Of a stretch of 50,777 nt of DNA, positions 22,927 to 27,439 are shown one piece after another. Both the position numbers and the translations under genes were made by a program. The DNA is from Candidatus Nomurabacteria bacterium (GTDB lineage: Bacteria; Patescibacteriota; Minisyncoccia; Phycocordibacterales; UBA9973): assembly GCA_943357245.1 (NCBI GenBank), contig CALRGH010000002.1:1-50777 (forward strand), read 5' to 3'. The first letter of the stretch is position 1, and each line of letters begins with the position of its first letter. The notes beneath the pieces were generated by a model. That model worked only from the letters and a program-made list of their open reading frames with translations, ran no database searches and was not told where the DNA came from.

Positions 22927-22947
22927 TGTGAGGCCTTGCCTCACACA
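22927..22947 (+). repeat. REP-like hairpin, copy 1 (TGTGAGGCCTTGCCTCACACA)
   Basis: 8-bp stem TGTGAGGC/GCCTCACA with loop CTT, 2 nt from the RT stop codon. Confidence 0.85.
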
Positions 22948-22949
22948 GA

Positions 22950-24008
22950 TTATAGTAATCCTGCTTTTTTCTTGATTTTATACGTGCTTCCATGACCAAG
23001 TAGCCCTTTGTATGAAATACGAGTCGGCTCACTCAAAGATTCCTCTAATCTTGCAACCATACGCCACTTGGTCGATGTCCTTAGTGTGCGATGTGTTGGA
23101 AAATGCACCCAGCCGAGAAAATCTACACCAGACGCATGAGTTTTGATAAATACTTTATTCGGATGCATTGTCAATTTTAATTTTTCTGCAAGAAAAACCT
23201 CTAATTTCGGCAACAATAATTCCAAATACTTTTTATCATCACTCAAAAAGACAAAATCATCTGCATAACGAATACAATATTTCGCTTTGAGATCCCGCTT
23301 CATAAACTGATCAAATTCATGCATATAAATATTTACTAATAATTGCGATGTAAGATTCCCTAACGGCAACCCAACAGGAAAACTATCAATTATTTGATCT
23401 AAAAGCCAAAGAGTGTCTTTATCATAAATATGTTTTGCAAGAATTGTTTTTAAAATACCATGGTCAATGTTCGCAAAAAATTTCCTAATGTCACACTTGA
23501 GCACCCAGCACGTCCTCGTATTATTTTTTGACACCTTGCGTGCAAAATAGCGAAACCTGTCTATTGCCCGATGTGTACCTTTACCTATACGACATGAATA
23601 CGAGTCATAAATAAACTTGCTATCAAAATATGCATATAGATTTCGATAGAGCGCATGATGCAACAACCTATCTCCCACACTAGCTTTGTGAATATCGCGC
23701 GGTTTTGGATCATTGAGCTTAAATGCCACATACCCGCCATGCGTATACGTTTTTTCTTTCAGATTTTTATGAAGCGCAATGATGCTATCCGAAAAATGTA
23801 ATGCAAACAATTCAACATCTTTCCTTTTTTGTTTACCACGCAAAAATTCCTGCCACGAGATAAGTAAGTTTTCGACGGATATGATATTCTTGTACTCATG
23901 GCGCAAGACTCCTCTCTCTCTCTCTCTCTCTCTCTCTCTCTCGGTAGCGCAACCATAATTACGCGCATCAAAGAGGGATATTTGCTGTGGATGAATATTG
24001 TTTCTCAT
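22950..24008 (-). CDS. DGR reverse transcriptase
   Basis: 352 aa; YADDFVF catalytic box; GLPLGNLTSQ (LGxxxSQ, the DGR-RT signature). Start is either ATG 24008 or the in-frame TTG at 23906 just 3' of the (GA)n tract. Confidence 0.9.
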   Translation of the reverse strand: MRNNIHPQQISLFDARNYGCATERERERERERGVLRHEYKNIISVENLLISWQEFLRGKQKRKDVELFALHFSDSIIALHKNLKEKTYTHGGYVAFKLNDPKPRDIHKASVGDRLLHHALYRNLYAYFDSKFIYDSYSCRIGKGTHRAIDRFRYFARKVSKNNTRTCWVLKCDIRKFFANIDHGILKTILAKHIYDKDTLWLLDQIIDSFPVGLPLGNLTSQLLVNIYMHEFDQFMKRDLKAKYCIRYADDFVFLSDDKKYLELLLPKLEVFLAEKLKLTMHPNKVFIKTHASGVDFLGWVHFPTHRTLRTSTKWRMVARLEESLSEPTRISYKGLLGHGSTYKIKKKAGLL

Positions 24009-24308
24009 ATGCCTAAAGGTAATCGCTACACCATCGGGGTGCGCATTGAAAATAAATTACTCGACCTTGCAGAGCTTGCCTATGTCACCTATTTTACTGA
24101 AAAAGACAAGAAACTCCAGAAAATTTGCGACTGCATACTGCTTTTGGACACGCTCAAATTCCTCATACATATAACCTGGGAAGCAAAACTGATTTCTCAT
24201 AAACAGTACGAAATCATTGCTGAAAAATTAGAAGAAATAGGAAAAATGTTCGGCGGATGGAAACGGAATCTTGAGCAAAATCCGGAAAAGAAAAACCGCA
24301 CCTTATAG
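23898..24308 (+). CDS. avd: DGR accessory variability determinant (Avd, four-helix-bundle family)
   Basis: 136 aa; ...YLLWMNIVSHMPKGNRYTIGVRIE...EIGKMFGGWKRN typical of Avd / 23S rRNA-IVS four-helix-bundle proteins. Opposite strand to RT and TR; overlaps the long RT ORF by 111 bp. Confidence 0.8.
   Translation: MAQDSSLSLSLSLSLGSATIITRIKEGYLLWMNIVSHMPKGNRYTIGVRIENKLLDLAELAYVTYFTEKDKKLQKICDCILLLDTLKFLIHITWEAKLISHKQYEIIAEKLEEIGKMFGGWKRNLEQNPEKKNRTL
23912..23942. repeat. (CT)15C dinucleotide microsatellite
   Basis: 31-nt uninterrupted tract. It encodes (SL)n in avd and (ER)5 in the long RT reading frame. Confidence 0.95.
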
Positions 24309-24366
24309 TGCATAGAAAAACCCCGCTGAAATCTAGGATTTCTAACAGGGAAAAAGAAATGAGTTT

Positions 24367-24497
24367 CGGGTACGGAAAACAAACTTGTTATTCGAATTCC
24401 ACCTGTTCGTAGGCTTCGCCGTATTCGCGTTCAGTTCGAGCTGGTCGCCATTATCGTTACAGTTGAACACGTTCGGATTGCCATCACGGTCAGTTTT
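24367..24497 (-). repeat. DGR template repeat (TR)
   Basis: 131 bp homologous to 24815-24945, rich in AAC/AAT codons in gene sense. Every position that differs from VR is A in TR. Confidence 0.88.
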
Positions 24498-24801
24498 GTA
24501 TGCAATGCCATCAGTCTCACTGCCGATCCAAGCGCCTGTGCCAGGGATCGTGCTGTACATATTGTGCGATCGAAAATCGCAAGCATCGCATACCAAGTAA
24601 TTTCTTTTTTTGGACACCATACAAACCACACTATGCACAACTCTAGTCATGCATATTCTCAATTTGCATATGCCAGTGAGGTTTCAGAAAGCCTTAGCCG
24701 TCCAATATCACCAAACCAAATATGATTATACAAAAAAATCGAACAAAGTATCTAAGCATCAAAAACACAAAGTTTCAAAACAATGCTAAGTTACCAAATC
24801 A

Positions 24802-26667: not shown

Positions 26668-26706
26668 GGATATATCATACCTGCTACCTCCTTCTATGAC
26701 AATCTG

Positions 26707-26727
26707 TGTGAGGCCTTGCCTCACACA
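26707..26727 (+). repeat. REP-like hairpin, copy 2
   Basis: 21-mer identical to copy 1 and in the same orientation, between the transposase stop and the target-gene start. Confidence 0.85.
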
Positions 26728-26730
26728 AAA

Positions 26731-27387
26731 CTACTCTTTGTACATAATCCATTCCATAATTTCTTTTTGAAAACTTGCTTCGGTTGGAAAATAATTTGGA
26801 AAGGGTTTTCGATTAACAACCTCAAACTTAGATACTTTGCTGTCTAAAAAGTTTTGGTAGCTTGAATATTCATAATCATTAAGATATTTGATTACTTCTT
26901 TTTTATTCTTAATCCCCTCTTCTTTCCATTTTGGATCAATAAGTTTAACGGGGTTCAAATGAATATACGAAAAAATATACTTCAAATATCGATCTGTGCC
27001 TATATGTTCTGCTTTGAATTTTCCTTCAAACAATGACCCTGTTCTCTCATATTTTTCGTTATAATACATTGCATATGCTGTTGCCAGTTTTTGCATAAAT
27101 TTACTAATCCCATCCTCAACAACAGGAGTAAGGAGGATATGAAAATGATTTGGCATTAGACAATACGCTCCAATAGCAACTAATTTATGTTTTTCATCAA
27201 CAAGAGTAGCCACCTCTGTTCTGTGTAAATTATATGTGTTGAATGGTTCTGTGCTATTTGCAAAATATAAAATTTCTAAAAAACGCAAATAATCATATTT
27301 GCTATGAAATATTTTCTGCTTACTGTTACCACGATTATAAACGTGATAATATTCACCCTCAACAAATTTTATTGTTCGAGTAGACAT
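26731..27387 (-). CDS. IS200/IS605-type Y1 HUH transposase / REP-associated tyrosine transposase (RAYT)-like
   Basis: Start trimmed to MSTRTIKF. YCLMPNHFHILL (HUH) and YIHLNPVK (catalytic Tyr region). Flanked by inverted REP copies. Confidence 0.8.
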   Translation of the reverse strand: MSTRTIKFVEGEYYHVYNRGNSKQKIFHSKYDYLRFLEILYFANSTEPFNTYNLHRTEVATLVDEKHKLVAIGAYCLMPNHFHILLTPVVEDGISKFMQKLATAYAMYYNEKYERTGSLFEGKFKAEHIGTDRYLKYIFSYIHLNPVKLIDPKWKEEGIKNKKEVIKYLNDYEYSSYQNFLDSKVSKFEVVNRKPFPNYFPTEASFQKEIMEWIMYKE

Positions 27388-27402
27388 ATATCTATTGTAT
27401 TC

Positions 27403-27439
27403 AATAACCTGTGTGAGGCAAGGCCTCACACAGGTTATT
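27403..27439 (-). repeat. REP-like hairpin, copy 3 (inverted, extended)
   Basis: AATAACCTGTGTGAGGC-AAG-GCCTCACACAGGTTATT, a perfect 17-bp stem. The core is the reverse complement of copies 1 and 2. Overlaps the stop codon of 27435..29207. Confidence 0.85.

Follow-up and report, generated by a model that had tools for sequence, protein, structure and literature searches.

A strain-specific block with hairpins at its ends joins a RAYT-like Y1/HUH gene to a diversity-generating retroelement in a Candidatus Nomurabacteria genome

Diversity-generating retroelements (DGRs) are very common in Patescibacteria. Systems composed of a REP-associated tyrosine transposase (RAYT) and its repetitive extragenic palindromes (REPs) are regarded as moving only short non-coding hairpins, and a high genome-wide copy number is a defining trait of REPs. 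Such systems, called REPtrons, have been described in Escherichia coli, Stenotrophomonas maltophilia, and Marinomonas, where a Y1/HUH gene is situated between inverted short GC-rich palindromes (PMC3333891, PMC8266576, PMC3479197). The REP of S. maltophilia is a perfect palindrome with a 3-nt loop, and the REPs of Marinomonas cluster near the gene (PMC8266576). RAYTs have been described as vertically inherited (PMC5581495). In cyanobacteria, transposase genes of the IS200/IS605 family were observed near DGR variable-protein genes and proposed as a possible route of DGR dispersal, based on gene proximity only (PMC7517822). Here, we analyzed a stretch of 50,777 bases (the window) from a Candidatus Nomurabacteria bacterium, a tiny, groundwater-type member of the Patescibacteria. 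As in a REPtron, a Y1/HUH gene (Y1) in this window is placed between inverted short GC-rich palindromes; on one side it adjoins a DGR, which ends in a third copy of the same hairpin. Alignment with relatives indicates that the 4.56-kb block containing both is strain-specific and has hairpins at its ends. In the literature, we found no paper on RAYT-like or IS200-like units or their hairpins in Patescibacteria, or on a DGR bounded by Y1 or by hairpins.

The three hairpins were defined from the 21-mer TGTGAGGCCTTGCCTCACACA, which is present exactly at 22927-22947 and 26707-26727 on the plus strand and at 27410-27430 on the minus strand (H1, H2, and H3, respectively; Table 1). No further site with up to 3 mismatches was found in the window, except for the same palindromes read from the other strand, and 100 dinucleotide-preserving shuffles gave 0 matches, the chance expectation being 0. 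An initial annotation of this DNA had reported these three copies, the third inverted, with an 8-bp stem and a 3-nt loop and with the stem of H3 extended to 17 bp. The exact pattern search bears this out, and the perfect stems measured 8, 10, and 17 bp for H1, H2, and H3. The placement given there relative to the genes is also confirmed, namely H1 just past the stop codon of the DGR reverse transcriptase (RT) and H2 between the start of the target gene and the stop codon of Y1. Likewise, H1 and H2 had been said to delimit the DGR, and they are indeed direct repeats at its exact edges, while the open reading frame (ORF) said to carry HUH (NHFH) and Tyr motifs between inverted H2 and H3 has a Pfam match, with both motifs invariant in 26 homologs. 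Since the stem is a perfect palindrome, the orientation of a hairpin is set by its 3-nt loop alone. Folded as single-stranded DNA, H1, H2, and H3 showed energies of −9.3, −11.0, and −18.9 kcal/mol, with z-scores of −5.2, −5.1, and −9.4 compared to shuffled controls. On the minus strand, the order is the last gene of a type-IV-pilus-like operon (590 aa), H3, Y1, H2, the DGR, H1, tpiA, and pgk; on the gene strand, the block is thus denoted H3-Y1-H2-DGR-H1. On the transcribed strand, each of the three hairpins comes directly after a stop codon, and the codon that ends the 590-aa gene (27435-27437) is part of the H3 stem. No T-run was present at H1, H2, or H3, and the terminator scan flagged none of them on the gene strand, while the ordinary terminators of this genome have A/T-flanked stems. 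In addition, no known RNA family matched positions 22000-28000 of the window at E values up to 1. An assembly artifact at the repeats is unlikely, as these measure only 21-37 bp and an independent Logan assembly has the identical layout.

Comparison with related genomes revealed empty sites. These were found in L029-L032 with L042, in L033-L034, and in L036, representing three related lineages whose TpiA is 92% and 89% identical to that of the window, or whose pilus protein is at least 90% identical. In all three lineages, the pilus operon is directly followed by tpiA, with a spacer of 71-147 bp. The blastn alignments of the relatives with the window are colinear at 79-89% nucleotide identity, stop at 27435, and resume at 22872-22887. 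The break on the pilus side is therefore the stop codon in the H3 stem, and the end on the tpiA side lies within ~55 nt of H1. Where the spacers of L029 and L033 have a terminator of the ordinary kind, its arms flanked by A/T, the window has H3...H1; the window sequence after H1, AGTTACGAAAGAATTTTTTTGGTGGG, still resembles AGTTACCAGGTAGGTTTTTTGATGTGG of L029. Since three lineages are without the block and each has a different spacer, a gain in the window lineage is the economical reading. Deletion in the relatives is disfavored by the same absence in three lineages with different ordinary spacers, and also because the inverted H3 and H1 would lead to inversion, not deletion. Intermediates with Y1 only or the DGR only were not found among the relatives. 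The tetranucleotide GTTA follows both H3 and H1, which is too short to interpret. The ORFs of the block are Y1, the target gene, Avd, and RT. With no integrase in or beside the block and 20 kb to the closest tRNA, a tRNA-targeted or integrase-borne island was rejected. Separately, the empty site of L036, the closest relative, contains at 3057-3203 a hairpin with a 14-bp stem, GGCCGAGAAAAGGC-TTT-GCCTTTTCTCGGCC, whose apex AGGC-TTT-GCCT is one base off the Y1 type and which is nested in a longer imperfect inverted repeat, GGTTATAGG ... CCTATAACC. The spot between the pilus operon and tpiA seems, from these sequences, prone to hairpin elements.

We then considered whether the hairpins are tied to Y1 in other genomes. 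The 19-mer core of the hairpin was present at 4 loci in 185,579 species-representative genomes and at 14 in the metagenome collection, a rarity at odds with a ubiquitous terminator, which the initial annotation had named as the outcome that would speak against its reading. Wherever a Y1 homolog accompanies the core, the core flanks that gene in the inverted arrangement of the window. In L002, another Candidatus Nomurabacteria genome, two inverted core copies 711 bp apart surround a Y1 homolog with 58% protein identity to that of the window, located between gyrA and a methyltransferase gene, and the exact 19-mer occurs in this whole representative genome only as these two copies. The metagenomic locus L011 has an upstream hairpin with the sequence of that in the window, and its downstream hairpin has a compensated pair, TGCGAGGC...GCCTCGCA (A>G/T>C). 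Further Y1 homologs were fetched by protein similarity alone, without using the hairpin. Seven independent Y1 loci (the window, L002, L011, L019, L022, L037, and L039) were thus compared, with proteins 58-68% identical and six genomic contexts. All seven have an inverted pair of one hairpin around Y1 and the constant apex AGG-Y-CTT-G-CCT, and the downstream position and orientation of H2 recur in the six other loci. The lower stem varies among the loci, yet it matches inside each locus (Table 1). When 19 hairpins were aligned, 88% of the cells paired, compared to 63% in shuffles and 25-44% with the partner column slid, and double changes were observed in 9 of the 13 stem pairs. In ~100 kb of distinct sequence from close relatives and from related DGR loci, the 11-nt apex motif was not found, and it is therefore no motif of terminators in general. 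These alignments strongly support a link between Y1 and the hairpins and show that the hairpins belong to the Y1 unit.

A sequence search of the PDB with the Y1 protein was uninformative, giving just E ~0.8 to ISDra2 TnpA; hence, structure prediction and fold search were employed. With the AlphaFold2 model (pLDDT 80.4, pTM 0.82), the top PDB match was 4ER8, in which TnpA-REP/RAYT of E. coli is bound to its hairpin (E 1e-4, probability 1.0, TM 0.63 on the target). This was the sole fold match with E <= 0.001, and the TnpA proteins of IS608, ISDra2, and IS200 ranked below it, mixed with Thg1-family proteins. In the family alignment of 26 homologs, the HUH motif NHFH (H81-F-H83) and the Tyr in SYIHLNP (Y141) are invariant, as is Y137. 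The Y1 ORF encodes a protein of the Y1/HUH type, with TnpA-REP/RAYT as the nearest match to its predicted fold. The protein-similarity search gave >7,750 members at E <= 1e-10; among the 120 matches listed, the length was 215-243 aa, and all those with a named source came from Patescibacteria. Members have ~219 aa and a conserved C-terminal extension, and the homolog closest to the Y1 of the window in the protein collection is 66% identical. Y1 units are a family of thousands, widespread in Patescibacteria (Nomurabacteria/Paceibacteria). Carriage of the block by a phage was considered and rejected, as the exact 19-mer is absent from IMG/VR and the protein scan gave one distant Y1 relative, 29% identical. 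This relative lies on an IMG/VR contig labelled viral (L035, 2922-2952 and 4888), where a 14-bp hairpin is found ~50 nt upstream of a leaderless-looking start and one hairpin arm is repeated 1.3 kb beyond the distant Y1 gene.

The upstream hairpin of the unit also appears to contain the −35 box of the Y1 promoter. In all seven loci, TTGCCT, formed by the apex and the 3′ arm, is followed by 16-18 nt, TAnnAT, 6-7 nt, and ATG. That the upstream hairpin carries the −35 box explains the fixed CTT orientation upstream. This arrangement implies that the Y1 mRNA would be leaderless and that the presumed DNA substrate of the enzyme overlies the predicted −35 box of its own gene, so that Y1 expression could be controlled by whether the hairpin is occupied or extruded. 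As a separate observation, the −10 boxes of tpiA, the DGR target gene, and Y1 (22868-22900, 26667-26702, and 27387-27421) are 6-7 nt upstream of the ATG, suggesting that mRNAs with no leader or almost none are usual in this genome.

The base composition of Y1 differs from that of its hosts. The Y1 gene of the window has 30.6% G+C, compared to 41% for the window, and 25% G+C at third codon positions (GC3). In the seven loci, the Y1 genes showed 22-31% G+C and 14-26% GC3, while the host loci have 32-50% G+C; in L002, the neighbor genes have a GC3 of 54-69%, compared to 23% for Y1. The AT-richness could result either from frequent transfer or from a selected property, e.g., easy strand opening between GC-rich hairpins. 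In the protein collection, no Y1 >66% identical and no RT >71% identical to those of the window was found, though TpiA relatives reach 92%. That Y1 stays at or below 66% despite such TpiA kin points to acquisition, not inheritance. Each locus examined has one Y1 copy. A direct case is provided by L019 (5923-6707) and L020. Across hairpin-Y1-hairpin and some 25-30 nt beyond either end of it, 785 nt in all, these two have 3 mismatches (99.6% identity), while TsaE and PolA, which flank the segment, share ~85% identity and the genes that come next downstream are unrelated to each other. This pattern reads as a recent exchange between diverged strains and, as far as aligned sequences can tell, shows that the Y1 unit has been exchanged between them as a discrete piece.

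Taken together, sequence and model suggest that the system would work most like a REPtron. As in Marinomonas, the hairpins of the window are clustered near Y1, and the best fold match is the hairpin-bound TnpA-REP. The Tyr motif, YIxxNPVK, also resembles that of RAYTs such as the E. coli protein. The unit nevertheless differs from a REPtron in that it has no GTAG/CGTC foot tag and conserves the apex instead, has, in the sequences covered, a very low copy number compared to the tens to hundreds of REPs, encodes a ~219-aa protein with a C-terminal extension that falls below the NCBI cut-off for RAYTs, and uses its upstream hairpin as a −35 box. It also differs from RAYTs as described in being AT-rich and in its signs of exchange between strains. 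To our knowledge, the description of REPtrons does not include protein-coding passengers enclosed by an additional hairpin. The unit resembles IS200/IS605 elements in its size of ~0.7 kb, in encoding a Y1 transposase only, in having hairpins near both ends, and in the overlap of the left hairpin with expression signals; in the fold search, IS608, ISDra2, and IS200 TnpA come after 4ER8. However, the end hairpins of IS200/IS605 are imperfect and in the same orientation on the active strand, whereas those of the window type are perfect and inverted in all seven loci, and thus the unit is not a classical IS200/IS605 element. Multi-copy identical elements, tnpB, and a defined target tetranucleotide, which are IS200/IS605 traits, were not seen, and no second copy was found in any locus or in the L002 genome. 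The window differs from the cyanobacterial case in its shared boundary hairpins, empty sites, active DGR, RAYT-like protein, and Patescibacteria host. The integron platform, with its IntI tyrosine recombinase, attI site, and cassettes each ending in an attC hairpin, is comparable by analogy only; an integrase is absent here, and the sole likeness is a gene bracketed by a hairpin.

The DGR itself is of a type known from chromosomes of Patescibacteria (candidate phyla radiation), as the order of target gene with variable repeat (VR), template repeat (TR), opposite-strand Avd, and RT is the same in L024, L026, and L027; the DGR of the window shows an A-specific signature. Its RT has >8000 homologs, the best of which is 71% identical and from Patescibacteria, and related DGRs have targets of similar size (624-648 aa). 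The Logan assembly of ERR5863119 (L041) spans 23916-36724 of the window with 99.83% identity and independently confirms the layout from the pilus operon to 23916. In 12,809 nt compared, 22 differences were found; all of them fall in the VR (24836-24927), and all 22 are at TR adenines. By this comparison of two assemblies, the DGR is active, with ongoing adenine-specific diversification. Two further observations concern its genes. The (GA)15 tract in RT encodes ERERERERER, kin RTs (L024 ~8045-8070, L027 ~8070-8090) carry tracts of differing lengths after a conserved N-x-x-P-x-QISLFD, and the L041 contig breaks inside this tract; through slippage, such a dinucleotide tract could act as an on/off switch of RT translation. 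A 106-aa ORF (24342-24662, minus strand) that is a degenerate copy of the target C-terminus encloses the TR, and this ORF probably reflects only the origin of the TR.

Table 1. Features of the block in the window and lower stems of the hairpins at the seven Y1 loci
Feature	Position	Strand	Description
Strain-specific 4.56-kb block, H1...H3	22873-27434	−	Absent from three related lineages (blastn of L029, L033, L036)
Hairpin H1	22927-22945 (21-mer 22927-22947)		8-bp stem, gene-strand loop AAG; 2 nt past RT stop (22950-22952); tpiA-side block end
Hairpin H2	26705-26727		10-bp stem, gene-strand loop AAG; downstream hairpin of Y1 unit; Y1/DGR joint; between Y1 stop 26731-26733 and target ATG 26670
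Hairpin H3	27403-27439		17-bp stem, gene-strand loop CTT; upstream hairpin of Y1 unit; pilus-side block end; between Y1 start 27387 and stop of 590-aa gene
Y1/HUH gene, RAYT-like, 218 aa	26731-27387	−	PF01797, 41.2 bits (cut-off 23)
Y1 promoter (predicted)	27394-27421	−	−35 TTGCCT in H3 apex, 16-nt spacer, TACAAT, ATG 6 nt on; flagged by promoter scan
DGR RT (long ORF; conserved core from near 23906)	22950-24008	−	PF00078, 6e-22; C-terminus of normal length compared to relatives
(GA)15/(CT)15 tract in RT 5′ region	23912-23942		
Avd	23991-24308	+	Divergent from RT; NF033474 3e-19, PF22296; layout shared by L024, L026
TR	24364-24533	−	Local alignment with VR; mismatches mostly A-to-N (27)
VR, 3′ end of target gene	24812-24981	−	24836-24927 differ between assemblies
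DGR target gene, ~622 aa from ATG 26670	24802-26670	−	No Pfam/NCBIfam match
Target-gene promoter-like site	26674-26702	−	TTGTCA-17-TATGAT, ATG 6 nt on; begins 3 nt after H2; consensus match only
Lower stem, window, L002, and L011			(TG)TGTGAGGC
Lower stem, L019			CCCAGGAGGC
Lower stem, L022			TTGCGTTAGG
Lower stem, L037			AATGCACTAGG
Lower stem, L039			ATCGTGAGG

We propose, with confidence that is evenly balanced for the explanation as a whole, that the block is a hairpin-bounded unit of a REPtron-like system that carries the DGR as a passenger. The basic unit is a REPtron-like module of ~740 bp, hairpin (loop CTT)-Y1/HUH-hairpin (loop AAG), whose enzyme would bind and cut the hairpins in single-stranded DNA, as TnpA-REP and TnpA-IS200 do. 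In the window, this module lies at one end of the 4.56-kb insertion that separates the pilus operon from tpiA and has replaced the ordinary terminator of the operon; at the other end is the third hairpin copy, directly after the RT of the active DGR. The insertion is bounded by inverted H3 and H1 like the basic unit, and the DGR would be a passenger enclosed by two "right-end" hairpins, the inner H2 and the outer H1. The block may have been moved or assembled by hairpin-directed breakage and joining, the outer hairpin serving as an alternative end. We infer both the action of Y1 on the hairpins and the hairpin-directed movement or assembly of the block, and mobilization of the DGR by Y1 is plausible. 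In L037, the order is hairpin-Y1-hairpin-CYTH gene-hairpin, and the passenger gene has the GC3 of Y1 (18%), while its neighbors have 28-40%. In L022, where the order is hairpin-201-aa gene-hairpin-Y1-hairpin, the third hairpin brackets a membrane-protein gene on the other side of Y1. Together with the block itself, whose ends and internal joint are copies of one hairpin, such loci suggest that the hairpin system can carry passenger genes. The initial annotation had raised the possibility that the block is, or was, a hairpin-bounded unit mobilized by the Y1 transposase with a DGR as cargo. Its bounded nature is upheld by the synteny between tpiA and the pilus operon, which shows a presence/absence polymorphism with breakpoints at H3 and within ~55 nt of H1, while its movement by Y1, or as one piece, stays an inference for which the chances are about equal either way.

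Several observations weigh against this proposal, and some of them favor a two-step history, which is the main rival. According to that history, the Y1 unit and the DGR arrived independently, or the block arrived by ordinary recombination through flanking homology, and H1 is a solo copy seeded or converted at a gene end; the hairpins would then be regulatory or terminal elements of Y1, 3′-end stabilizers, or insulators between modules, and the adjacency of the DGR would be incidental. We regard such a history as possible, although somewhat unlikely. Related DGRs at three loci (five contigs, L024-L028), situated at other genomic sites and with RT identity up to 71%, have neither hairpins nor Y1, which indicates that the link between DGR and hairpins is local, not general. 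The initial annotation had foreseen that related DGRs without hairpins would count against it, and this is partly the case, the sites being different ones. A hairpin as an intrinsic DGR feature was also rejected, because these cassettes have no hairpins at their ends. The DGR genes in the block have a host-like GC3 of 34-44%, unlike the 25% of Y1, and thus the DGR need not share the history of Y1. Solo hairpins are found at gene ends in other genomes without Y1 close by, all three hairpins of the block directly follow stop codons with H3 in place of the canonical terminator of the relatives, and the spacer between the pilus operon and tpiA differs in every relative, hence it is a variable spot. 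No second case of Y1 next to a DGR was found, and the insertion events on hand number one. Moreover, the junction on the tpiA side is blurred by ~55 nt of diverged promoter, so a cleavage or target site is undefinable. A guide tetranucleotide of the GTAG/CGTC type is not conserved at the hairpin foot, as the feet differ among the loci and only the apex is constant. The copy number is low (3 in 50.8 kb, all in the block, and 2 in the L002 genome), with no sign of REP-like proliferation. The order TsaE-Y1-PolA is common to L011 and L019, with PolA 51% and Y1 62% identical, indicating that the unit can stay in place for long periods. With NCBIfam NF047646 (REP-associated tyrosine transposase, equivalog), Y1 scored 43.2 bits, under the cut-off of 80; of the assignment to RAYT or TnpA in the initial annotation, the Y1/HUH domain, the motifs, and the RAYT-like fold therefore stand, while membership of the RAYT equivalog does not. 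Against the two-step history, two rare events would be needed in one spacer of 70-150 bp in one lineage, and the relatives offered no intermediate with Y1 or the DGR alone. The hairpin-bracketed passenger of L037, with its Y1-like composition, and the hairpins of the block, which are without a T-run and were not flagged as terminators on the gene strand, also argue against it.

An improbable alternative is a cassette-like integration, in which a DGR cassette, circular or single-stranded and equipped with a single long-stem hairpin, recombined in an att/attC-like manner with the hairpin downstream of Y1 in a unit already resident, leaving H2 and H1 as direct copies. These direct repeats do delimit the DGR exactly, and in L037 a single gene is enclosed by direct repeats in the same way. 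On the side facing the DGR, the flanks of H2 and H1, ACAATCTG / CAGATTAT, are complementary at 7 of 8 positions; a circle junction would therefore re-form a 16-bp H3-like stem, and the reciprocal junction would be left with just the 8-bp core. However, this complementarity is short, with a chance estimated at ~1 in 50 after allowing for the shared TG/CA and multiple pairings, and the match may be explained by the overlap of the flanks with the stop codon of RT and the −35 box of the target gene. In addition, the L037 bracket is without flank complementarity, a free DGR cassette bearing this kind of hairpin was not found, and Y1 is also missing from the relatives, so that a resident unit must be assumed. 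That the 21-mer is an ordinary, common terminator unrelated to Y1 is very improbable and was rejected. Every copy does follow a stop codon, the stems are stable and GC-rich, and some terminators of this genome have GGC-NNN-GCC apexes. Nevertheless, the full 11-nt AGGYCTTGCCT was observed only near Y1 or in loci fetched with the hairpin, which excludes this apex as a general terminator trait. The 21-mer is rare, with its only 3 copies in 50.8 kb all in the block; it lacks a T-run, unlike the A/T-flanked stems of the other terminators; the hairpin pair flanks Y1 homologs just 58-66% identical and co-varies with them; and the apex is missing from the loci of close relatives and related DGRs. Beyond the passenger proposal for this block, we tentatively consider, while holding it to be rather unlikely, that the Y1/hairpin unit is a gene-capturing and gene-moving platform, in which a stretch that gains a further hairpin joins the unit and travels between strains.

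Further hairpin copies were observed outside the block. Solo, nested, and half-duplicated copies are present on other Patescibacteria contigs, atop unrelated extended stems, which adds to the case for the passenger proposal. Nested, tandem, or half-duplicated hairpins were seen at L007 12625-12675, L015 ~1010-1065, L014 ~100-140, L010 230-300, and L039 9938-9977; in these, one copy lies in the loop of another, or the left arm and loop are repeated, and L007 13245-13290 is an inverted doublet of the short version. Apex hairpins are found in frame inside ORFs at L037 9385-9422, L007 12982-13042, L001 519-543, and L004 2687-2709. The host gene in L037 encodes RNase HII, with 5 additional residues there compared to a homolog; L007 has a 42-nt tandem repeat within a 194-aa ORF; and the hairpins in L001 (PurD) and L004 (HolB) are both translated as VVRQGLTT. 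Rickettsia palindromic elements and other small palindromic repeats land inside genes. The in-frame location of the apex hairpins is similar, whereas their sequences and lineage are different, and we know of no described link between Rickettsia palindromic elements and a Y1 gene.

The locus combines an exact empty site, hairpins at both ends and at the joint, an active DGR, and thousands of comparable Y1 units. The hairpin promoter found in seven of seven loci is a tidy case of a recombination site that doubles as a regulatory site, whatever the outcome for the passenger. If passengers are indeed carried, the block would represent a concrete, testable route for the spread of DGRs and accessory genes in reduced genomes, and the presumed role of Y1/REP systems would be extended. 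If the unit is a platform, it would provide a vehicle for DGRs and accessory genes in a tiny-genome phylum otherwise poor in recognized mobile elements, and, through the hairpin promoter, expression of the enzyme would depend on the state of the DNA on which it acts.

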